Part shown: one piece after another, positions 4,190-16,374 of the stretch
Layout of the letters: each line of letters begins with the position of its first letter
Numbering within the stretch: position 1 is the stretch's first letter
From: a virus
Reading direction: 5' to 3' (one strand)
Virus record (IMG/VR): IMGVR_UViG_3300010885_011634
Coordinates: 1 to 64,000 of that record
DNA: 64,000 nt
Made by a program: the position numbers and the translations under genes
The notes under the pieces: model-generated
The model's input: the letters and a program-made list of their open reading frames with translations, nothing else
Told to the model about the DNA's origin: nothing
Databases searched by the model: none

Positions 4190-4402
4190 ATGAACACATT
4201 CCTACTACCAAAAGCTCGTAGCATGGTTACCGGACAAACTGTTAAACAACAGGATCTCACAGGTAATCGCTATACTCTACAACAACGTGATCTGTGCCAA
4301 GCTCAAGCCGACCTACTAGCGAAAAAACAATCCGCTGTTACAGGTGACACTTGGACAGGATTTGTTGAACAGTATACGCCTACAACAAGATCATCTGTAT
4401 AG
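4190..4402 (+). CDS. hypothetical late protein
   Basis: TATAAATA late-promoter motif ends 5 nt before ATG 4190 (MNTFLLPKARS...). Confidence 0.7.
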   Translation: MNTFLLPKARSMVTGQTVKQQDLTGNRYTLQQRDLCQAQADLLAKKQSAVTGDTWTGFVEQYTPTTRSSV

Positions 4403-4825
4403 ATAGTTTACTGAGTCAGTATTTTCTCTATAGATCTCAGCACCATTCTTTAAGTGAAACTTACGTGCCATTTCAGTTTTAGGACTCAGTGTCACGTAGG
4501 TAGTGACTTCGGGATTTTCTTCTTTAATTCTAGCCTGAGCCTGTTCAATTAACTCACGGCCCGCACCCGCAGCATAACTCCAAATAGTATAGAACACCGC
4601 GGTATTGGTGTTGATGACAGTGTCAGCTAGTTCGTCTACGCTTCTAGGTATGTCTGCTAGGAACTTTACGCAGGTCACTGCCAGTGGTTGATCATCGGCA
4701 TCTTTGAGTACAAATATACGACTGTTGTCGTTGACTCTCTGCTCGATGGGGATCTCAGGACGAACAGGATCGTCTTTGATCAATTGTGTTAGTGCGTCTT
4801 CGATTGAGTTGATGATGTGTAGCAT
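4391..4825 (-). CDS. GNAT-fold protein resembling the malonyl-CoA decarboxylase catalytic domain; putative acyltransferase
   Basis: TAVFYTIWSY...GAGRELI...YVTLSP resembles the MCD motifs AVFYSIS...GNFLIK...FATLSP; FHLKNGA is a GNAT-like C-terminal motif. Confidence 0.55.
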   Translation of the reverse strand: MLHIINSIEDALTQLIKDDPVRPEIPIEQRVNDNSRIFVLKDADDQPLAVTCVKFLADIPRSVDELADTVINTNTAVFYTIWSYAAGAGRELIEQAQARIKEENPEVTTYVTLSPKTEMARKFHLKNGAEIYRENTDSVNYLYR

Positions 4826-4877: not shown

Positions 4878-5588
4878 TTAATCTATAGGTTGGGTCTGTT
4901 CCAAGCTGAGTTCTTGATCTTCAAGCTCTCGTATTTCGTCAGTGATTTGATCTATGAGTCCTAGGTTGCGTATGACCTTGAACACTAGATTTTCTGTTGA
5001 CCATTCGCCTGCACGTTCTAATCCTGCCTTGCGCATTTTGGTAATACGTTCTTTTACTGATCGTAACTTATTAAGATCTTTAGATAAAAGTGCTGACTCA
5101 ATATCGTGGATTGCTGAATCTTTTTTGGCTTCTACAGCAGCATCATCGACATCGGGTTTGACTTTACGAGGTTCTTGAACCCATGCTTGGTTTAATATGC
5201 TGTAGATACCTGTGCTGTGATGTGGTTCGTCTTGACCTTGTACATAGCATTCTACAGGTAGGCCTCGCACTGTGATGTTATGTTGATCGCTCCAGAGAGC
5301 TTTCTTAGCATTGAACAGTTCGCGAGCACCTTCGCCGGGTAACCCCTTGACTATTAAGTGTAAATCTAAATCACTGTATTCTGTCCAGGTATAGTTGGCA
5401 TTACTACCAGTGATCGTGTAATCTACTACATTTAAGTCAATTCCGATAAATTCTTCAAAAGCCATGGCAATTTCTTTAAGTTTATCAACGACTTGCAAGT
5501 CCAATTTTCCGTCTTTCCACAATTTGGGGTTTAATCGTCGGTTCAGAGTAATTAGATCACGTTGTTCTGTTAACTGTCTTAAACGCAC
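4878..5588 (-). CDS. DNA polymerase beta-superfamily nucleotidyltransferase
   Basis: ITGSNANYTWTEYSDLDLHLIV fits the hGS...DxD motif; likely third acidic residue in VECYVQ; GTG start. Confidence 0.75.
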   Translation of the reverse strand: MRLRQLTEQRDLITLNRRLNPKLWKDGKLDLQVVDKLKEIAMAFEEFIGIDLNVVDYTITGSNANYTWTEYSDLDLHLIVKGLPGEGARELFNAKKALWSDQHNITVRGLPVECYVQGQDEPHHSTGIYSILNQAWVQEPRKVKPDVDDAAVEAKKDSAIHDIESALLSKDLNKLRSVKERITKMRKAGLERAGEWSTENLVFKVIRNLGLIDQITDEIRELEDQELSLEQTQPID

Positions 5589-5986: not shown

Positions 5987-6226
5987 TTATTTAGCCCACA
6001 TTAGGTGATAGCTTAACAATGTGCGTTCATCGTAAAATTCAGCCATGAGTTTGAAGTCATCGTTGACTTTGTCTACTACTAATTGGCATTGCTCGTGCGG
6101 TTGTTTTAATAACCAAGTAACTTGTTCTATGCCTATGGCCTTTTGTACTTTGGGCCAATCTACATCTATCATATCAGTGCCGTTATTGGTTTGCCAGTGA
6201 TATAATTCAATACGTTTACTCTTCAT
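5987..6226 (-). CDS. hypothetical protein
   Basis: 79-aa ORF overlapping the helicase stop. Confidence 0.65.
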   Translation of the reverse strand: MKSKRIELYHWQTNNGTDMIDVDWPKVQKAIGIEQVTWLLKQPHEQCQLVVDKVNDDFKLMAEFYDERTLLSYHLMWAK

Positions 6227-7637
6227 CGCCGCCCATGTTGTTAAGGATTTCTCTTAACTTAGTTGATTCTACATGAGCACGTACTTTACCTACAGGCACG
6301 CCTTCTGTTGGCTCTTCACGCTCTTCTGTTTGTAAATTGGTCTTGCGTTTGATACTGTCAATAATTGAACTAGCACCGCGACTAGCTGAACCTCCGTGGT
6401 CTTGTTCATCTTCTGGTAAATCGCTGATCTTTAATGATTCTAGATTAAACTCTAGATCAATCTTCATACCAACACCACTCGAACTACGAGTTTTCATTAA
6501 CTGTATTTGATAGCGTCCACGTTCACGCATAGCCCTACTAGTGAAGATACCAAACACGTTATCTGCCGTTTGAATCTTACTTAAACCACCACTAATATGA
6601 CTGTGATCAAACTCAACTTCTTCAACTGCTCCACGATTCAACTGTGCCGCTGTAACGAACACACAGTTCTTTTCTACTGCTAGATTACGCAGTTCTTCTG
6701 ACACATACTTGTCTTTGATAAACAAGTCTGCTGGACTGATCTTTTTACTCACTGGCATCAGCAAGTCTAAATAGTCAACTAACAATACGTCTACTTTCTT
6801 GCCTACTTTGATTTCATATTCTTTTAAGTATGCTCGAATGTCGTTGGCAGTCTTACCGCTTGGCATGTACTTGACCTGTAACATACCTGCTTTCTTGCCT
6901 ATGATCTTAACTTTCATTTCAACATCATCTAAATCCTTAAAGATGTCTTTAGTTGCAATACCTGTAAGCATTGCATCAATACGCATACTAACCAATGCTT
7001 CTGAAAGTTCTAGTGTTAGATAAACTACATTAAGGCCCATTAACGCCCAGTTCACACCTAAGTTCGCTAAGAACAATGATTTACCTGCACCCGATCCACC
7101 TGCAAAGATATTCAACTCTCCGCGGTTCATGCCACCAAACAATCTACGATCCATGCTAGGCCAGCCTGTACTTACCTGTCCGTTTTTATCTTTAATACCT
7201 AATAGTCTACCACGTGGATCAGCAAAGTAGTCAGTACCCATATCACGTGCCAGTCCAATTTGTACTGCTTCTTTGATCAGTACTTCAACTGCACCGTAGT
7301 CATGCTTTTCTAATAAGTCTGCTGAATTAATAATTGCTCGTTCAAGAGCTTTGTGTTGTGTGAACTGTTCAAACTCATCCATGAACCAATCCATATGCCC
7401 ATCTTTGATTTCTTCAGGCTTTTTCAGTTCAGTACGACAAGTGGCATTGACCATTTCATAGTCCGGTAATACATTGTAGCCTTTAGCATATTCATTAATG
7501 AACTCTGCGGCATCTTGTAGTTTACGATCAAACAGGGTGTGATCAAAAATACCCTGACAGCGTACAAACACTTCTGCATCTGCTAACATTAATTCAAGAT
7601 ATAATTTTTGTACTTCGTATCCGTATTCTTTTATCAT
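6216..7637 (-). CDS. replicative DnaB-like helicase (T4 gp41-like)
   Basis: Walker A GGSGAGKS, YLTLELS, Walker B LLVDYLDL, TAAQLNR, MKTR. Confidence 0.93.
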   Translation of the reverse strand: MIKEYGYEVQKLYLELMLADAEVFVRCQGIFDHTLFDRKLQDAAEFINEYAKGYNVLPDYEMVNATCRTELKKPEEIKDGHMDWFMDEFEQFTQHKALERAIINSADLLEKHDYGAVEVLIKEAVQIGLARDMGTDYFADPRGRLLGIKDKNGQVSTGWPSMDRRLFGGMNRGELNIFAGGSGAGKSLFLANLGVNWALMGLNVVYLTLELSEALVSMRIDAMLTGIATKDIFKDLDDVEMKVKIIGKKAGMLQVKYMPSGKTANDIRAYLKEYEIKVGKKVDVLLVDYLDLLMPVSKKISPADLFIKDKYVSEELRNLAVEKNCVFVTAAQLNRGAVEEVEFDHSHISGGLSKIQTADNVFGIFTSRAMRERGRYQIQLMKTRSSSGVGMKIDLEFNLESLKISDLPEDEQDHGGSASRGASSIIDSIKRKTNLQTEEREEPTEGVPVGKVRAHVESTKLREILNNMGGDEE

Positions 7638-7640
7638 ATA

Positions 7641-8660
7641 TTAATTATATACTCTTTCTAATTTTTGTTCTAGTTGTTTCATGGCCATTTGTAATTTTAT
7701 ATGTCCTTTTTGTGCTGTTTTGATAGCATCGACAATTACAAATAACTTGCCGTATCTCTGTACAGCATCTGCACTATCTTTTACGTCAGCATCCCAGTTA
7801 GGAAACGCCACGGCCCAGTCATGTTGGATAGCTCGTTTAATAAGCTCAAGCCCAGCTTCATCTTGATCGGGTATTACAATAACTTCATGCCCTAGACTAT
7901 TAATTATACGTGCCTGTTGATCCGCAATGTCGTTAGTGAGTAACGCTACACCACCTACTGCTAACGCATCAAATGGTCCTTCACAAACAAATACATATTT
8001 TTGATATTCTTCTTGGCTATCAACATTAAACACAAAATGCGGATGCTGATCAGAAATATATTTTGGTTTACCGTCTGTGACTTTACGAGCAGTATTGCCT
8101 ACTATTTCTCCTTTATAGAAAAACGGTAGTATTACTCTATTGTCAAATCCAGATAAAGGAGTCCAATAGAACTGTCCACTAAATGCATCATGCCCACGAT
8201 CAATAATATATTTGACTACACTAACAAATGCATCCTGACTATCGCTTGGCAAGTCGTCTACTATAGAAGACCATTCAGATATTGGCATAGCACCCTCTGG
8301 TAGTTCTTTTACTCCAAAGTCAACTACGGGTTCTGAATGAGTGGGTTGATAATCGGCAGATTCTGTTTTGAGTGCTTCAAAAATTAATTCTTTAATATCA
8401 TCTTCTGATGCACCTAACCATTTACAAAGATTCTTAAATTTGTTAGATATTGGACGACCCGGCAGCCAACTTGCTGTAAATTTACAATTGAAACAATTAT
8501 AAACTATACCTTGATCAAATCGTAACCCACCTCGTTTACGTGTATCTGATTTGTGGCCGCGATGTCCGCAACAGGGGGCGTTAAAACTAGTCCAACCAGA
8601 CGGACTTGCTTTTGCACGTGAAGGTAATAGCGTTCGAAATTTGTCAACTACGAGAGTCAT
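7641..8660 (-). CDS. DNA primase (T4 gp61-like)
   Basis: N-terminal Zn ribbon (PCC...YNCFNC); TOPRIM motifs VCEGPFDA, IPDQDEAG and KD. Confidence 0.9.
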   Translation of the reverse strand: MTLVVDKFRTLLPSRAKASPSGWTSFNAPCCGHRGHKSDTRKRGGLRFDQGIVYNCFNCKFTASWLPGRPISNKFKNLCKWLGASEDDIKELIFEALKTESADYQPTHSEPVVDFGVKELPEGAMPISEWSSIVDDLPSDSQDAFVSVVKYIIDRGHDAFSGQFYWTPLSGFDNRVILPFFYKGEIVGNTARKVTDGKPKYISDQHPHFVFNVDSQEEYQKYVFVCEGPFDALAVGGVALLTNDIADQQARIINSLGHEVIVIPDQDEAGLELIKRAIQHDWAVAFPNWDADVKDSADAVQRYGKLFVIVDAIKTAQKGHIKLQMAMKQLEQKLERVYN

Positions 8661-8666
8661 ACATAT

Positions 8667-8695
8667 AGTATACTATCTGTATAAGACCTTGTCAA
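8667..8695 (-). promoter_or_regulatory. sigma70-type promoter of the primase-helicase operon
   Basis: Minus strand TTGACA-17 nt-TATACT-6 nt-ATG(8660). Confidence 0.8.
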
Positions 8696-9488
8696 CGGTT
8701 CCTGTGGTTGGATAATGCCGAACTCGGAAAAAATTGTATTTTCCTGTGACATTTTTATATACTTGACTTGCACTAGATAATGTTAACGTTTCAAGATCTG
8801 TCCAAACATGTGGATTGCCACCTTCACTTAGACTACCTTGAATTTTTACAGTGCCAGTATAATTTGAACAGCTTAATTGGAATGTGTGTAGACTTTGTGG
8901 TACTTGTGTAATACCTACTGCGTCAATTAAACTAGAAGTATAATATTTAGGTTCTGTATTACCGGTTGTGCCTGGATTAATATATTCAAATTTGGTTACG
9001 ATAATGCTTTCTTCTGCTTCACCTAACACGTCACCGGATACTTCCATAGTACCAATGGCACCGTATTGAGCATCTTGAAACATAGGTGTTTTAGAAGTCA
9101 CGGTATATTCGTCTGTTCCGCTAATTGGCGAACGGACTTCTTGAGTAATGCTGTAATTATAGAATCCTGATTCTAATTCTGCTAATTCTGCTTGAGTCAA
9201 AATAACATAAACTTTGCCACCGCTGGCACTAACTGTAACACAGTCTTTGCTGAGAATTAAATCTTTCCCCTCTCTGGTAATGATGTTAAATACCAAAGTA
9301 GAGCCGCTTATATCTGCGGCTTTCTGGTCCGAGTTCCGTACCTGTAAATCAATACGATTATCAACACTGCGATAAGTTTTTAAGTTGCGATTATACACTC
9401 TACGATACCTCTCCGTTTGCCAGGAAGCCAGCGCATTTGTAAATACGTCTATCTTATTTGGATATAAATAAACTGAATTAAGTTGCAT
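8673..9488 (-). CDS. putative virion structural protein (beta-rich, baseplate/tail-associated)
   Basis: Thr/Ser/Val-rich beta-sandwich character; late motif TAAATA upstream at about 9509-9514. Confidence 0.5.
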   Translation of the reverse strand: MQLNSVYLYPNKIDVFTNALASWQTERYRRVYNRNLKTYRSVDNRIDLQVRNSDQKAADISGSTLVFNIITREGKDLILSKDCVTVSASGGKVYVILTQAELAELESGFYNYSITQEVRSPISGTDEYTVTSKTPMFQDAQYGAIGTMEVSGDVLGEAEESIIVTKFEYINPGTTGNTEPKYYTSSLIDAVGITQVPQSLHTFQLSCSNYTGTVKIQGSLSEGGNPHVWTDLETLTLSSASQVYKNVTGKYNFFRVRHYPTTGTVDKVLYR

Positions 9489-9517: not shown

Positions 9518-9889
9518 ATGAGAATAACAGAAAACTTACAAGAAAATTTTCCATTCATAAGCGTATTAAACCACGTAAACCATGAATACGTAGGCATTAT
9601 AATCAACCAAGATGCTCAGGTAACTAGCATGTATGATTATGTATCAATACGAACAGAACAAGAACGAACACGCTTCTTAGAACTAGGTGAAGCATGGTGG
9701 TGGGAATCAAATAGACAAATTCCTATTAATATTTTTCTATCTAGAGAAATTGGGGAATTTAAGTATGTTATTAAAAACTTCAGTACCAAAGATGTTAAAT
9801 TACTACATGGCCCTTGTACTAGCTTAAATGATATTATTGTAAAAAGAATTAAACGTAAATCTATTACATTAGTTCGTCGAGCAACCTAA
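9518..9889 (+). CDS. hypothetical phage protein
   Basis: 123-aa ORF with WWWESNRQIPINIF. Confidence 0.75.
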   Translation: MRITENLQENFPFISVLNHVNHEYVGIIINQDAQVTSMYDYVSIRTEQERTRFLELGEAWWWESNRQIPINIFLSREIGEFKYVIKNFSTKDVKLLHGPCTSLNDIIVKRIKRKSITLVRRAT

Positions 9890-10464
9890 CTAAACTCGTA
9901 ACTAATCTCTTCACAAATTAAATTCATTTGAACAACGACTGCAACTGCATACGCAGTAGCATGCGACTTCTTAAAGAAATACTCGTCATTCTTTGGTTTT
10001 ACCCACACTTCGTTCATTATTGTAGTCCAATCTTTCTCTATCAGATAACGCTTCGCTGGTCGTATCATCGCTAGTACTGCTGCTAATTGTTCGATGCTTT
10101 TCGGCTGCACTTTGTTGAGTATAGAAGAGTTCCCGTTGACGTGAAATAGTAAGCTGTTGAAAGATGAATCTATTAGCAAATCCCATAATGGCTCTCGGTT
10201 CATTAATTCCATGAGATGCTCTTCATCTCGTACACCTTTATATATCCCAACGTTGAGAAAATCTATTTTGAAATACCCTAAGTCCTCAGCGGCTTCATAT
10301 GGTACTGCACAAATACCTTCAACGGCATTCATTGGTACTTCGTGTAGATAGACTCCTGTATTATGCTTAACTAATTTGTTATCATCAATACGACTAGCTC
10401 GTACATGCTTAAACAAAGTTAATGCTTGCTCACGATCTAAAAAGTCTATATCTATATCTGGCAT
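9886..10464 (-). CDS. minimal DNA polymerase III alpha (C-family) catalytic-core protein
   Basis: DnaE motifs in the correct order: PDIDIDF, HNTGVY, GYFKIDFL, PKSIEQLAAVLAMIRP, YFFKKSHATAYA; only 192 aa. Confidence 0.8.
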   Translation of the reverse strand: MPDIDIDFLDREQALTLFKHVRASRIDDNKLVKHNTGVYLHEVPMNAVEGICAVPYEAAEDLGYFKIDFLNVGIYKGVRDEEHLMELMNREPLWDLLIDSSFNSLLFHVNGNSSILNKVQPKSIEQLAAVLAMIRPAKRYLIEKDWTTIMNEVWVKPKNDEYFFKKSHATAYAVAVVVQMNLICEEISYEFS

Positions 10465-10637
10465 GGTTCAACCTTTTTCCAACTAGACGGTCCATCTGAA
10501 GAAAAGCCAACGTACTGTTCGCCAGTCTCCATATCAATTAACCTGTACTTCTCTGGACATCGAGTGTACACGGTTAATGTTTTAGGATTCTCAAGTTCTA
10601 ATACTTGTGACCCGTCTTTTAATGTTCTAGTGGTCAT
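10452..10637 (-). CDS. hypothetical protein
   Basis: 61-aa ORF overlapping both neighbours. Confidence 0.6.
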   Translation of the reverse strand: MTTRTLKDGSQVLELENPKTLTVYTRCPEKYRLIDMETGEQYVGFSSDGPSSWKKVEPCQI

Positions 10638-10873
10638 TAATTTAATCTTGTGGTTTCGAATAATAATAAAGGCAACGTGTCTGCTAAAAATTGTGCGTAT
10701 TCTTCTGCATCTTCATCATCAGCGAATCCAGAAAATTTAACATACACTACTCCTTCTTCTGTATCTGTTGGCGCCGAATACACTTCAATATCAATATCAT
10801 CTCTAGAAATAAATTCTTCGTTTTCACGTAATTCTTCTACTTCTTCTATTTTTGGCGGCGGTCTTTTTGGCAT
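10637..10873 (-). CDS. acidic hypothetical protein
   Basis: 78 aa with TAATG coupling on both sides. Confidence 0.65.
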   Translation of the reverse strand: MPKRPPPKIEEVEELRENEEFISRDDIDIEVYSAPTDTEEGVVYVKFSGFADDEDAEEYAQFLADTLPLLLFETTRLN

Positions 10874-11556
10874 TATAGTATTTTAGCTTCCTTAATGATG
10901 TCTTTAACTAATTCAATATCTGCAGGCAATGCTTTGAAACGGCGCATCCAAAATTGTGGATCAATCATAGGTCCTATAATTTCCAATTGCTCATCATTCA
11001 TACGACGCAACATTTCTTTACCTGACTTACTATTTAAGATAATCCACGGCGATACTAACCCTTCTTTAATATCGTGTGTAGCACGATTCAAATTTACATA
11101 TTGAAAATAATGTTCCCACCCAGCATTATTTTCATCTGCCCACTCCATCATCGTTTTGATAGTACGTTGTATTGCACCGTCAGCAGGTTCTTTTTTAATT
11201 AACTCTGCAACATACGTTTCATACAACTCATCACGACACCAATGATCTAATTTTACTCCACTGCGTATTACAAACTCTATAAACATCTCTGGATATATTG
11301 GCGCTGTATTAACTAAGAAACTACCAAATTTAACCATGGCATTATAAAATGCGCTTGATGCAAAGTCTTCAAAGGATTTAGTAGCGTGAGACTTTTGAGA
11401 TATCTCATAAAATCTTTGATAAGTTAATAACCCTGCCTGTACATGTTTTTCATGCTTGCTCATGTGCCTGCGTTTTTGTTCGCATACATGTACGGCTAGA
11501 GTTTTTTCTTTAGCAAATTCTTTATTACAATATTCGCACTTAAAACTTAATTGCAT
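10873..11556 (-). CDS. hypothetical protein with N-terminal zinc finger
   Basis: FKCEYCNKEFAKEKTLAVHVC (C2HC/C2H2-like); start placed at ATG 11556. Confidence 0.7.
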   Translation of the reverse strand: MQLSFKCEYCNKEFAKEKTLAVHVCEQKRRHMSKHEKHVQAGLLTYQRFYEISQKSHATKSFEDFASSAFYNAMVKFGSFLVNTAPIYPEMFIEFVIRSGVKLDHWCRDELYETYVAELIKKEPADGAIQRTIKTMMEWADENNAGWEHYFQYVNLNRATHDIKEGLVSPWIILNSKSGKEMLRRMNDEQLEIIGPMIDPQFWMRRFKALPADIELVKDIIKEAKIL

Positions 11557-12019
11557 TGATCTGTTTTTTGTCCCAACCAAGTGTTGCACAATATTCCTTA
11601 ATTTCTTTATCTGTTGTAATTTTAGCCATTGTTTCTATATCTGCTAATTTAGTACTAGGAAATAATTCTGCAAGGAATTCTTCTTTTTTATTCTTTTGTT
11701 TCTTTAACGGAATCCATTCATGAAAGAATGTTTTCTTGCTTTCATGACTACACATACATAGCGTTTGCCAAACTAGCTTTGGATGCTTTTGTATGTCATT
11801 CCAATTCTTATTATAAAATTCATTAGTGGTTAAAACAAAGTGTTCTTGATGTTCTCTATTGCTTGTCTTAACATTACTAATATATCGATTTAGATTCCAA
11901 AAATCGCCTTTGATTTCTTTCTTGCCTTCGTCTGTGGCAGCTTCCCACAGATCTTTAAGTCCAAGGTCTACTGCTGGAATCATATCCTTAAAAAGATCTA
12001 CGTGTTTATTTTGGCCCAT
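11540..12019 (-). CDS. putative clamp loader small subunit (T4 gp62-like)
   Basis: Size, position in the replication module and the pattern FWNLNRYIS...NEFYN...FHEWI resemble the gp62 family. Confidence 0.5.
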   Translation of the reverse strand: MGQNKHVDLFKDMIPAVDLGLKDLWEAATDEGKKEIKGDFWNLNRYISNVKTSNREHQEHFVLTTNEFYNKNWNDIQKHPKLVWQTLCMCSHESKKTFFHEWIPLKKQKNKKEEFLAELFPSTKLADIETMAKITTDKEIKEYCATLGWDKKQINAIKF

Positions 12020-12816: not shown

Positions 12817-13500
12817 TTACACCTGTGAATTATAAAAATTTAATAAGTTTACGTACTGTTCGTTTTCGTGTTTTCTAGATCCTTTTGCTGTCCAAATCAT
12901 TCGATCAGGAGTCATCTTTGTACCAGTCCACTCAGAACTTAATTGCGGTATTGGTTTTTCAATCATCATAGCATCTAATATATCTTGATCTAAAAACCAA
13001 TAAATGTTTCCTTGTTTGAAACTTTCATATAATCTAGTGCTGTATGTATTTCTAAAATCATCAGCTCCAAATGATATCGCACTGGCTAATGACTTACCAC
13101 CTTTTCTAATAGTAATTTTACTAAGGTCAGTTGCTTCTAAAAATTTAGTTAGTGGGATTGTTTTATTAGCAATCACATCACAATCAAAACTTATAACCTT
13201 TGCAGAAGGATCAAATATTTCCGGAATTCTTATAAACCGAATGCAAGCACATAACGTATTAAATTCTTTATTATTAATATCTATTAATTCGCTGGTATAG
13301 CTTACGCTTTTTTGAGAGCACCATTCTAGTTGTTCATTGGTTGGATTATACAAATGAACATGAACATTTGCCCACGGTGCATGTTGTAGTAAACTTAATG
13401 CTAGTGCTTTGCCATATAGATCAAAATATTTTGAATCTGCTGCAAAGTAGAAGAAGTTACCAACTAAGCGAGACGGTACATTCAAAGACGGTAGGATCAT
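12817..13500 (-). CDS. putative GT-A glycosyltransferase
   Basis: RFIR...ISFDCDV (DxD), WFLDQDIL, WTAKG. Confidence 0.6.
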   Translation of the reverse strand: MILPSLNVPSRLVGNFFYFAADSKYFDLYGKALALSLLQHAPWANVHVHLYNPTNEQLEWCSQKSVSYTSELIDINNKEFNTLCACIRFIRIPEIFDPSAKVISFDCDVIANKTIPLTKFLEATDLSKITIRKGGKSLASAISFGADDFRNTYSTRLYESFKQGNIYWFLDQDILDAMMIEKPIPQLSSEWTGTKMTPDRMIWTAKGSRKHENEQYVNLLNFYNSQV

Positions 13501-14312
13501 AGATTTTTTAATTCGTTAAGCATTATATCGTAATTGGGAATATTGAACTCTAATAATTTACGTGTATCAATTAAGATTTTGTTTACAGGCTTTGGACCTT
13601 GTGTCTGTACAATAGTTTTGTTAAGAGCAAATGTTTCATTTATCTTACACAACAAGTCATATTTGTTAATTTTATTATCGTTATTAACAAGATGGTACAC
13701 TCCGGTAATTACAGGAGTTTGCATGTATTGATCAATACATTTTGCTAACTGTAAGGTAGTAATGCCATTCCACCAAGCATTATCCCATCCTTGTAATTCA
13801 GTCGCTGGGTTGTTAACGACCCAATTAAAAAGTCCTGTGCCATTCGATTTTAACTCAGGGCCAATAATACTCATTCTAAATGTAACATCTTTACTGTTAT
13901 TCACTTCACCTAAGGATTTTGAGTTGCCATAGGCATTCATTTCAGTATGAACATCTGCTTCGACGTATTCACCTTTCTTACCATCAAACACGCAGTCTGT
14001 TGAAAGATGTATTAGTTTCGTAGCAGTATTTTTTAATGCCTGCTCAACGTAGTGCGGAAACCAAGAATTAATAATTGCAGCTCTATCTGGACGATCATTG
14101 CTGTCTTTGACTAACAAGCCAATACAATTTATAACGTAATCGTAGACATCAATATTATTAAAAAACTGTGTAACATCTACTACATTTTCGATGTCTAAAT
14201 GAAAATCAGCATCAGTTCTAGCGACAGTATGCACAACATAATTTTGTTGTTTAAGATACTTTACAATAACATGTCCAGCCATGCCATTGGCGCCAATTAC
14301 TAAGACTTTCAT
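13497..14312 (-). CDS. RmlD-family NDP-4-keto-6-deoxy-sugar reductase (QnlA/WbvR-like)
   Basis: GANGMAG, INCIG, HLSTDCVFDG, YGNSK (YxxxK). Confidence 0.88.
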   Translation of the reverse strand: MKVLVIGANGMAGHVIVKYLKQQNYVVHTVARTDADFHLDIENVVDVTQFFNNIDVYDYVINCIGLLVKDSNDRPDRAAIINSWFPHYVEQALKNTATKLIHLSTDCVFDGKKGEYVEADVHTEMNAYGNSKSLGEVNNSKDVTFRMSIIGPELKSNGTGLFNWVVNNPATELQGWDNAWWNGITTLQLAKCIDQYMQTPVITGVYHLVNNDNKINKYDLLCKINETFALNKTIVQTQGPKPVNKILIDTRKLLEFNIPNYDIMLNELKNL

Positions 14313-15289
14313 ATGAACTTACCTTTTTTCAGCATTTCCTTAATCTCAGATTTGTTCATGATAAACGTCTTAGATGAAAATTCTTGATGTGCAAATTTCT
14401 TTAGATCTTTATATTTTTCAGTTAATTCAGCACTAGATTTAGAAGGTAGAATAACAAAATAATTTTCATCGTAACAATACGATAACGGTGATTCATGTTT
14501 TGAAATTAACATTTCATCTAATTTTTCACCAGGACGGCCGCCAATTTCTTTTATTTCTACAACACCATATTCGTCTATTAGTACATTGGCAATATCTCTA
14601 ATATAACATGCTGGCATATTCATAACAAATGTTTCACCACCGATACTGTCTTCTGCTGCTTTGAATAACAAACTTATTGCTTCTTCTAATGTCAAGAAGA
14701 ATCGGGTCATTTCTATATCAGTGATAGTGATTGGCCCACCTGCTTTAATCTGTTCTATAAAATAAGGAATTACGGAGCCATTTGAGCCCATAACATTGCC
14801 GCCTCTAATACAAACAAATTTAGTATAGTCGGTTAAATCATTAGCTTGGATAATTAATTTCTCGCCTACAGATTTAGTCATTCCATATAGGTTAACCGGT
14901 TCAACAGCCTTATCAGTGCTTACATCGATAACCTTTTTTACACGATTTTCAATAGCGGCATTAACAATATTACTGGTGCCGGTAATGTTTGTTTTGATTG
15001 CTTCTTGCGGATGTTCTTCACATACCGGAACGTGTTTAAGAGCAGCCATATGAAAAATATAATCAATATTCTTAGTGGCAAATCTTACAGAATCATAGTC
15101 ACGAACATCACCAATTACATACTTAATGCGCTGGTCATTAAACTTTCGTTGCATTAAAACTTGTTGTAGTTCACCTCTAGAAAATACAACAATTTCTTTT
15201 ACATCGTATTTTTCCAATAACATTCTAGTTAAGGTTTGCCCCCAAGAGCCCGTGCCCCCGGTTATTAAAATTCTTGCATTATTAAACAT
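14309..15289 (-). CDS. UDP-GlcNAc 4,6-dehydratase (FnlA/CapE/PseB family)
   Basis: TGGTGSWG, FHMAALKHVP, STDKAVEPVNLYGMTK, RGGNVMGSNGSVIP, MTRF, RPGEKLDE. Confidence 0.9.
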   Translation of the reverse strand: MFNNARILITGGTGSWGQTLTRMLLEKYDVKEIVVFSRGELQQVLMQRKFNDQRIKYVIGDVRDYDSVRFATKNIDYIFHMAALKHVPVCEEHPQEAIKTNITGTSNIVNAAIENRVKKVIDVSTDKAVEPVNLYGMTKSVGEKLIIQANDLTDYTKFVCIRGGNVMGSNGSVIPYFIEQIKAGGPITITDIEMTRFFLTLEEAISLLFKAAEDSIGGETFVMNMPACYIRDIANVLIDEYGVVEIKEIGGRPGEKLDEMLISKHESPLSYCYDENYFVILPSKSSAELTEKYKDLKKFAHQEFSSKTFIMNKSEIKEMLKKGKFI

Positions 15290-15297
15290 ATTTTTTC

Positions 15298-16374
15298 CTA
15301 AGTTGACATCAGTATGTTAATTACTGTATCCGATACATTTGTTTTATTATACTCACTAGGGATGCCCCAATTTTTATTAATTGCCTTGGCGCTGTTATAG
15401 CAAGAAATTATATTTTCTTTTTTAAGGCCGCTAATAATATTCGATCCACACCAAATTGTTTCCGGTCTTTCTGTTGTATCTCTAATGGTAATTGTTGGTA
15501 TACCAAATAAACACATCTCTTCTTGCACAGTACCTGAATCGCTAATTGCCATATATGCATTTTTTTCTAAGTTAACAAAATCAAAAAATCCTAACGGTTC
15601 AGTCATTATGATATTTGGATTATCAACTAAAATATTAAACTTTGCTAATTTTTGTTTAGTTCTAGGATGGCAACTAAACACTATTTTATATTCTTTAGAT
15701 ATTTCTTCAAAACTTTCAAAAATATTAATTAATCGATCATCAACATCAACATTTTCTGCTCGATGTGCAGTGGCTATAATGTAGTTATTTTTTTCAAGAT
15801 TAAGTGTTGTTAATATAGAGGAACTGTTGATTTCAGTTGCATAAAAATCTATTACTTCTTTGATTGGATTTCCTGTGACAAATACTTTATTGTTTGTAGC
15901 ACCTTCACGTAATAAATTTTGACGACTTAATTCAGTGTAAGGTAAATTTATACTAGACACAGCATCAATAATTTTTCTATTCTTTTCTTCAGGAACTTTG
16001 AGATCATAACAGCGATTACCAGCTTCCATATGGTAGACTGGAATGCCTAATCTTTCACATATGATTGCTGCTAGCCCAGAGTTAGTATCGCCCAATATTA
16101 AAACTTTATCAGGATTAAACTCTTGTAGATATTGTTCTACTCCAACAAACATCTTACCGATTTGTTCAGCTGTGGTACCTTTACTATCTATTACGACATC
16201 AGGTTTACGTATGCCTAAATCGTTAAAGAAAATATCGTTAAGCGCAGGATCGTAGTTTTGTCCAGTATGTAGTATGCGATGATCGCATAACTGATCAAGT
16301 TTAGGTATAATTCTAGACAGTCGTATGATTTCTGGACGTGTGCCTAGGATTGTTAATATCTTACAATTAGCCAT
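15298..16374 (-). CDS. UDP-HexNAc 2-epimerase (FnlC/WbjD/QnlB type)
   Basis: GTRPEIIRLS, HTGQNYD, HMEAGNRC, PEEKNR, SDSGTVQEE, TERPE. Confidence 0.9.
   Translation of the reverse strand: MANCKILTILGTRPEIIRLSRIIPKLDQLCDHRILHTGQNYDPALNDIFFNDLGIRKPDVVIDSKGTTAEQIGKMFVGVEQYLQEFNPDKVLILGDTNSGLAAIICERLGIPVYHMEAGNRCYDLKVPEEKNRKIIDAVSSINLPYTELSRQNLLREGATNNKVFVTGNPIKEVIDFYATEINSSSILTTLNLEKNNYIIATAHRAENVDVDDRLINIFESFEEISKEYKIVFSCHPRTKQKLAKFNILVDNPNIIMTEPLGFFDFVNLEKNAYMAISDSGTVQEEMCLFGIPTITIRDTTERPETIWCGSNIISGLKKENIISCYNSAKAINKNWGIPSEYNKTNVSDTVINILMST

Follow-up and report, generated by a model that had tools for sequence, protein, structure and literature searches.

Jumbo phages of group 2.2 encode a split, minimal form of the DNA polymerase III (Pol III) alpha subunit, which accompanies a family B polymerase and possibly aids the synthesis of one strand or repair (Iyer, Anantharaman, Krishnan, Burroughs, Aravind 2021, Viruses 13:63; PMC7824862). 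DnaE-type polymerases are also found in group 3.2 jumbo phages and SPbeta-like Bacillus phages, in which they are single-chain, host-like and PHP-bearing and serve as the main replicase (PMC7824862). Many members of the split family are already labelled 'DNA polymerase' or 'DNA polymerase III alpha' in GenBank, RefSeq and JGI records. Here, we analyze a 192-amino acid (aa) protein encoded within positions 1 to 64,000 of the IMG/VR virus record IMGVR_UViG_3300010885_011634 (hereafter the window; 64,000 nucleotides, nt). The contig measures 91,263 bp and is rated 26% complete by CheckV, with the gene lying 10 kb from one end. We refer to the 192-aa protein as the C-unit (C-terminal unit) and to the separately encoded N-terminal unit of its relatives as the N-unit. 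Judged by its sequence, the C-unit is an uncultured new member of the described family, and it very probably constitutes the C-terminal part of a group 2.2 split minimal Pol III alpha that pairs with an N-unit to rebuild the active site. As far as we found, natural single-chain fusions of the two units, a residue map against the E. coli ternary complex, the ratio of nonsynonymous to synonymous substitution rates (dN/dS) and a fixed gene order are new relative to the 2021 description.

The C-unit resembles the group 2.2 proteins RaK2 ORF124, PA5oct gp264 and Phosso gp437 (from a Klebsiella, a Pseudomonas and a Sinorhizobium phage, respectively) in its size, its DxDxD start and its full-length match to phrog_11778. 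The phages in turn share its neighborhood (a convergent small open reading frame (ORF), a structural protein, primase and helicase) as well as a T4-like replication gene set. The differences are in sequence, with 38-50% identity to members from cultured phages (63-80% to IMG/VR relatives), and in gene content, as neither an N-unit nor a family B polymerase was found on the partial contig. With the polymerases of group 3.2 and SPbeta-like phages, which an N-unit query weakly matches, the C-unit has in common a phage-encoded C-family catalytic domain, but the enzyme here is split, minimal and of the kind that occurs alongside a family B polymerase. The text of the PA5oct paper contains no mention of the C-unit gene.

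The C-unit ORF runs from an ATG at 10464 down to 9886 on the minus strand, its product beginning with MPDIDIDF. The original prediction, made from the sequence alone, had described a clean 192-aa frame overlapping the upstream ORF without stating the strand, and this frame is present: the ATG falls within the final codons of an upstream ORF of 61 aa that ends with a TAG at 10454-10452. A purine-rich GGAAAAAGG stretch is located 8-16 nt 5′ of the ATG, and at the other end the C-unit stop (TAG) overlaps the stop (TAA) of a convergent 123-aa ORF. All of the motifs first noticed (PDIDIDF, HxxG, KIDFL, RP and FKKSHATAYA) are found in the C-unit, namely D3/D5/D7 in PDIDIDF, H34-N-T-G37, K66-I-D68-F-L, R135-P136 and Y162-F-F-K-K-S-H168-A-T-A-Y-A.

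Profile and structure comparisons bear out the proposed relationship to DnaE. Among PHROGs, the C-unit matches phrog_11778 ('DNA polymerase') with an E value of 7.3e-65, residues 3-186 aligning to profile positions 8-194 of 197. The Pfam models DNA_pol3_finger (PF17657; E 0.026, 14.3 bits vs a gathering score of 22) and DNA_pol3_alpha (PF07733; 10 bits on the DxD stretch vs a cut-off of 23.9) remain below threshold. Full-length DnaE profiles (phrog_405 and TIGR00594), run in six frames over the 91-kb contig, matched the C-unit ORF alone, in three collinear patches comprising the DxD strand, the third-Asp strand with the first finger helices, and the KSH helix. When a profile of 89 family representatives was compared with the PDB, the top nine sequences were all Pol III alpha (E 1e-5 to 2e-4). 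The AlphaFold model of the C-unit has a predicted local distance difference test score (pLDDT) of 96.9 and a predicted template modeling score (pTM) of 0.89, and the 13 best chains retrieved with it by Foldseek are all Pol III alpha/C-family polymerases. VIA-align places 188 of the 192 residues on Taq alpha (3E0D) 461-841 with Z 9.7 and a root-mean-square deviation of 3.5; E. coli alpha 401-784 follows with Z 9.0 and PolC 971-1296 with Z 9.5, against Z 4.0 for the best unrelated chain. The listed motifs are not chance occurrences, and the C-unit contains a Pol-beta-type palm with three catalytic carboxylates.

In comparison with DnaE (E. coli 2HNH and Thermus aquaticus 3E0D), the C-unit displays the same Pol-beta-like palm, the Asp triad and equivalents of K553, R639-P640, Y754/F756, K758 and the steric-gate H760, and superposes with Z 9-10 (Z 22 for the natural fusion described below). 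DnaE, however, comprises 1160 aa and carries its palm on one chain, whereas here the palm would be divided between two polypeptides, and the C-unit is devoid of PHP, thumb, index finger, ring/little fingers, clamp-binding, OB-fold and tau-binding domains. PolC of Firmicutes (Geobacillus kaustophilus 3F2B) matches equally well in structure (Z 21 for the fusion), but it differs from the C-unit in having a DnaQ exonuclease insertion, an OB fold at its N terminus and permuted accessory domains, all absent here. The Z-scores to DnaE and PolC are tied, and because sequence identity is only about 15-20%, a reliable tree is out of reach.

Residue equivalences were taken from a hidden Markov model (HMM) alignment of the C-unit to E. 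coli DnaE, and conservation was read from the 89 representatives, which stand for 50%-identity clusters. D3, D5, K66, D68 and P136 are invariant, and D7, H34, G37, R135, K165, H168 and A173 are at least 90% conserved. In ternary complexes of E. coli alpha, the equivalent residues coordinate the metals, supply the Lys at the primer phosphate, touch the templating nucleotide and form a roof stacking on the incoming base, and the K553A variant is dead (bioRxiv 10.64898/2026.06.29.735100). Ribonucleotides are presumed to be excluded by H760 as a steric gate (PMC8485763). The conserved C-unit residues map onto E. coli residues within 4 Å of the deoxynucleoside triphosphate (dNTP) or the templating base. 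Elsewhere the protein is drastically shortened: E. coli 406-538 is covered by approximately 46 residues, with the thumb (433-510) reduced to a loop of approximately 15 residues (40-55), and 641-742 by approximately 17, with most of the index finger (about 642-741) gone, including R709, R710, K714 and K715. Nothing extends past E. coli approximately 784, in the first middle-finger helices, and the PHP domain is absent. The C-unit ORF also contains no GS motif, which in E. coli alpha is R362-G-S and is essential in that R362A abolishes activity (bioRxiv 10.64898/2026.06.29.735100). The C-unit amounts to the palm's C-terminal half and a reduced fingers module. The original prediction of a miniature polymerase core needs correcting in that the core is not whole: the half with the GS motif is missing. 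Its account of shortened segments and of absent PHP and C-terminal domains was correct, but the thumb it put at about 25 aa is the shorter loop given above, and the index finger is mostly deleted as well.

In relatives, a separate ORF of 155-177 aa matches PF07733 positions of about 20-96 above the gathering score (34-46 bits). Such N-unit ORFs were found in Phosso, PA5oct and RaK2 and in three IMG/VR contigs with C-units that share 64-72% identity with the one here, that is, in six of the six relatives checked with enough sequence. The N-units end in ...WGVGRGSSVASY...(Y/F)xL..(E/K)EF(F/L)K, for example ...EFFKE, the E. coli counterpart being ...GPGRGSGAGS...FERFLN. They stop just short of the point at which C-units begin, a few residues before DxDxD, so that the DnaE sequence is tiled without overlap. 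Two further IMG/VR relatives, G001 (198,723 bp, 56% complete) and G002 (280,019 bp, 79% complete), yielded no N-unit with PF07733, for which a filter miss or the missing part could account. Close behind the N-unit gene, relatives carry a small gene (L095:899-1243, minus strand; L096:1995-2387, L013:2081-2407 and L014:1968-2486, plus strand) whose product, by eye, looks like a GroES/gp31-type co-chaperonin (…GGI(I/V)L.DD.GK.RGI..RW…). Since the N-unit gene adjoins this co-chaperonin-like gene, the two polymerase halves lie in two different conserved neighborhoods.

The occurrence of the two units across phages points to a joint function. In tblastn searches, the C-unit was found in 96 phage records (at 38-50% identity) and the N-unit in 107, with agreeing counts per genus (Escherichia 34, Pseudomonas 11, Klebsiella 10-11, Erwinia 8, Salmonella 8, and others); the N-unit surplus consists of Bacillus and other phages with a full-length DnaE. 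In metagenomes, each half forms at least about 7,800 clusters at 90% identity. An exhaustive search of representatives additionally uncovered natural fusions, P0211 (375 aa) and P0266 (336 aa), composed of an N-unit, a linker of 6-12 residues and a C-unit, and two further fusion clusters, P0271 and P0272 (376 aa), that are 78-81% identical to P0211. The fusions retain the GS, DxD, K-x-D, R-P and K-x-H motifs and join the halves in DnaE order. They are rare, with four clusters compared to thousands of split ones, and scans of IMG/VR and JGI metagenomes with P0211 and P0266 returned no genomic locus for them. As single chains were folded, the fusion model stands in for a model of the heterodimer: it is confident as one body (pLDDT 87.2, pTM 0.84) and superposes approximately 290 residues on Taq and M. 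tuberculosis Pol III alpha with Z 22.3, whereas the next fold class (CCA-adding enzyme, OAS, Pol beta and Cid1) attains at most Z 4.1.

With N-units in relatives and natural fusions at hand, the early suggestion of a split polymerase stands, but not its proposal that the partner might be a neighbor: ORFs 9518, 10452, 10637 and 10873, as well as 11540, bear no polymerase similarity in Pfam or PHROGs. A further candidate at 4878-5588 (minus strand), located beyond the helicase, encodes a 236-aa Pol-beta-type nucleotidyltransferase-like protein (NTP_transf_2, E 0.003; phrog_36119, function unknown). It is unrelated to the N-units (BLASTP E 8; different PHROG) and was likewise rejected.

In the mechanism we propose, the C-unit would pair noncovalently with a separately encoded N-unit of approximately 155-177 aa, whose gene would lie off the incomplete contig. 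From the N-unit would come the initial strands of the palm and the triphosphate-binding motif G-R-G-S-S, and the two polypeptides together would rebuild a Pol-beta-type active site of approximately 350 aa for extending a template-bound primer with dNTPs. We lean toward the pair being a dNTP-using, template-directed polymerase, because the metals, the primer end, the templating base, the incoming base and the 2′ position are contacted by precisely the residues that are conserved. Such an enzyme would be distributive and nonproofreading, given that the thumb, index finger, outer fingers, clamp-binding motif and PHP/epsilon site are absent, and would act as an auxiliary polymerase beside a family B replicase. 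A family B polymerase of 825-1003 aa is encoded in five of the five relatives checked; PF00136 found none on the 91-kb contig, itself 26% complete. The auxiliary enzyme might perform short-patch work, extending primers or filling gaps beside the primase-helicase before handing over to the family B replicase, a suggestion that is tentative and, on balance, rather unlikely to be right in this precise form. The fixed position of the C-unit gene, two genes from the primase-helicase, fits a possible lagging-strand role. A comparable hand-over takes place in Bacillus, from DnaE to PolC. It is possible, though doubtful, that the pair of approximately 350 aa is self-sufficient as a template-directed polymerase without thumb or index finger and acts as the primer extender that works with the primase-helicase for the family B replicase.

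Several other explanations of the C-unit deserve consideration. Comprising only a fragment of a 1160-aa enzyme and staying below the Pfam thresholds, it could be taken for a decaying, functionless remnant of a captured bacterial dnaE. Across 81 coding sequences from the window and IMG/VR loci, however, dN/dS has a median of 0.135 (interquartile range 0.10-0.18, maximum 0.26) in 272 pairs with 0.05 < dS < 1.5, and the catalytic residues D3, D5 and D68 are invariant in the 89 divergent representatives. Neither length nor synteny varies, the family comprises more than 7,800 protein clusters, and the six-frame search of the contig with phrog_405 and TIGR00594 recovered no PHP, thumb or C-terminal pieces of an ordinary dnaE. 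The C-unit gene is under strong purifying selection, and the dN/dS values and the invariant Asp triad refute a pseudogene, which the frame did not resemble in the original prediction either; a remnant is extremely improbable. The C-unit might instead function alone, as a repurposed minimal nucleotidyltransferase (the alternative initially offered) or a DNA-binding accessory factor, which would accord with the confidence of its own fold (pLDDT 96.9) and with a gene that is never adjacent to that of the N-unit (34-224 kb apart). The GS motif with its essential Arg is missing from it, however, R362A being inactivating in E. coli alpha, and N-units occur in the same phage genera at the same counts and are joined to C-units in DnaE order in the fusions, making a stand-alone role very unlikely.

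A two-piece enzyme could also be a template-independent nucleotidyltransferase on the Pol-beta fold, such as a terminal transferase, a DNA-end modifier or a nucleotide-signal synthase. The thumb, index finger and outer fingers with which Pol III alpha grips primer-template are all absent, and the folds nearest to the fusion model after the C-family are the CCA-adding enzyme, OAS, Cid1 and Pol beta. Against this, the R-P motif, the Tyr/Phe roof and the steric-gate His are 90-100% conserved, a degree of conservation not readily accounted for unless a template and a deoxyribose substrate are involved, and the fusion model reaches Z 22 to C-family polymerases versus 4 or less to other nucleotidyltransferases. 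We regard template-independent transfer as unlikely.

Certain observations weigh against the preferred reading of a two-piece, template-directed Pol III alpha. No N-unit was detected on the 91-kb contig by PF07733, phrog_405, TIGR00594, a Phosso N-unit query or a six-frame scan for G(R/K)GS; with the contig 26% complete and the gene far away in relatives, this absence is expected and is not evidence that the genome lacks the gene. The pairing itself is deduced from co-occurrence, sequence tiling and natural fusions, and our literature search found no biochemical study of any family member. The equivalents of the triphosphate-holding R709, R710, K714 and K715 and the duplex-gripping thumb are absent, and the position of E. 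coli R390 is, as read by eye, a Glu in N-units; for these reasons, templated synthesis is not assured. The link to priming is drawn from gene order alone, and the N-unit gene lies outside the primase-helicase neighborhood.

The family illustrates how much of a C-family active site can be lost while selection still maintains the rest, one chain bearing half a palm and a single pair of finger helices and the other the nucleotide-binding half. If active, the pair would show what the minimal catalytic unit of the bacterial replicase family is and add a second polymerase to the T4-like replisomes of giant phages, which are very abundant in metagenomes. A self-sufficient pair would be the smallest C-family polymerase by far. 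The single-chain fusions (336-376 aa) make this reading directly testable, and if it is true, they would help to decide between two histories: cellular Pol III alpha as the outgrowth of such a minimal module, or the phage enzyme as a reduced form of it.

Table 1. Features of the C-unit locus (window coordinates) and distances between N-unit and C-unit genes in relatives
Feature	Position or distance	Strand	Basis or remark
C-unit, 192 aa; very probably the C-terminal (Mg2+- and template-binding) unit of a split minimal DNA Pol III alpha	9886..10464	-	ORF; phrog_11778; model; 3E0D match
Codons D3-I-D5-I-D7 = E. coli alpha D401/D403/D405, metal ligands	10444..10458	-	HMM alignment; D3, D5 invariant, D7 ≥90%
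Codons K66-I-D68 = E. coli K553, D555 (primer-phosphate Lys, third catalytic Asp)	10261..10269	-	Both invariant; alignment to E. coli 538-641
Codons R135-P136 = E. coli R639-P640, templating-nucleotide contacts	10057..10062	-	P136 invariant, R135 ≥90%
Codons Y162-F-F164-K-K166-S-H168 = E. coli Y754, F756, K758, H760 (dNTP roof, steric-gate His)	9961..9981	-	Alignment; K165, H168, A173 ≥90%
Upstream 61-aa ORF	10452..10637	-	Overlaps C-unit start by 13 nt; sole match is the phrog_4098 C-terminus
238-aa protein with C2H2-like zinc finger	10873..11589	-	phrog_11058; same strand in 45/45 full-flank loci
Convergent 123-aa ORF, phrog_11637 (function unknown)	9518..9889	+	phrog_11637 E 3.5e-34; stop overlaps C-unit stop
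Virion-structural-protein-like gene between C-unit and primase	8673..9488	-	phrog_14467, phrog_1084; same position in RaK2, PA5oct, Phosso
gp61-type DNA primase (Toprim)	7641..8660	-	phrog_47 E 1.4e-31; Toprim_2
gp41/DnaB-type replicative helicase	6216..7637	-	DnaB_C E 8e-18; phrog_19 E 1e-69
N-unit to C-unit gene distance, RaK2	34 kb
N-unit to C-unit gene distance, PA5oct	44 kb
N-unit to C-unit gene distance, Phosso	224 kb
N-unit to C-unit gene distance, three closer IMG/VR relatives	167-184 kb

The C-unit gene sits in a conserved gene order consisting of zinc-finger protein, C-unit, convergent small ORF, structural protein, primase and helicase (Table 1). In Phosso, PA5oct and RaK2, the annotations show the same succession of genes from C-unit to helicase, and all five flanking genes are present in each of the 45 IMG/VR loci with full flanks. 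The convergent 123-aa ORF lies on the opposite strand in 45 of these 45 and in 78 of 78 loci overall, as it does in RaK2, PA5oct and Phosso. Its conservation exceeds even that of the C-unit (median 79% identity); it shows no polymerase similarity in Pfam or PHROGs, and an Atlas search gave no match. A T4-late-promoter-like TATAAATA occurs at 9463-9470 (plus strand), 48 nt 5′ of the ATG of this ORF, and read-through from it would run antisense to the C-unit gene. The TATAAATA motif is found four times in the window against 9.5 expected, which is not above chance.

The window has no nucleotide match to known phages. It encodes replication and recombination proteins (gp41-type helicase, gp61-type primase, UvsW, UvsX, UvsY and gp32) together with a T4-type terminase, tail sheath and gp15-like protein, gene content by which it is assigned to a T4-like giant phage. 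Within the replication region, a 144-aa ORF at 4391-4825 (minus strand) matches the malonyl-CoA decarboxylase C-terminal domain (PF05292, E 7.6e-10), an odd occurrence in such a setting. Further along, at 13497-16374 (minus strand), three adjacent sugar-nucleotide genes encode an RmlD-like reductase, a Polysacc_synt_2 4,6-dehydratase (E 4e-95) and a UDP-GlcNAc 2-epimerase (E 1.6e-89).

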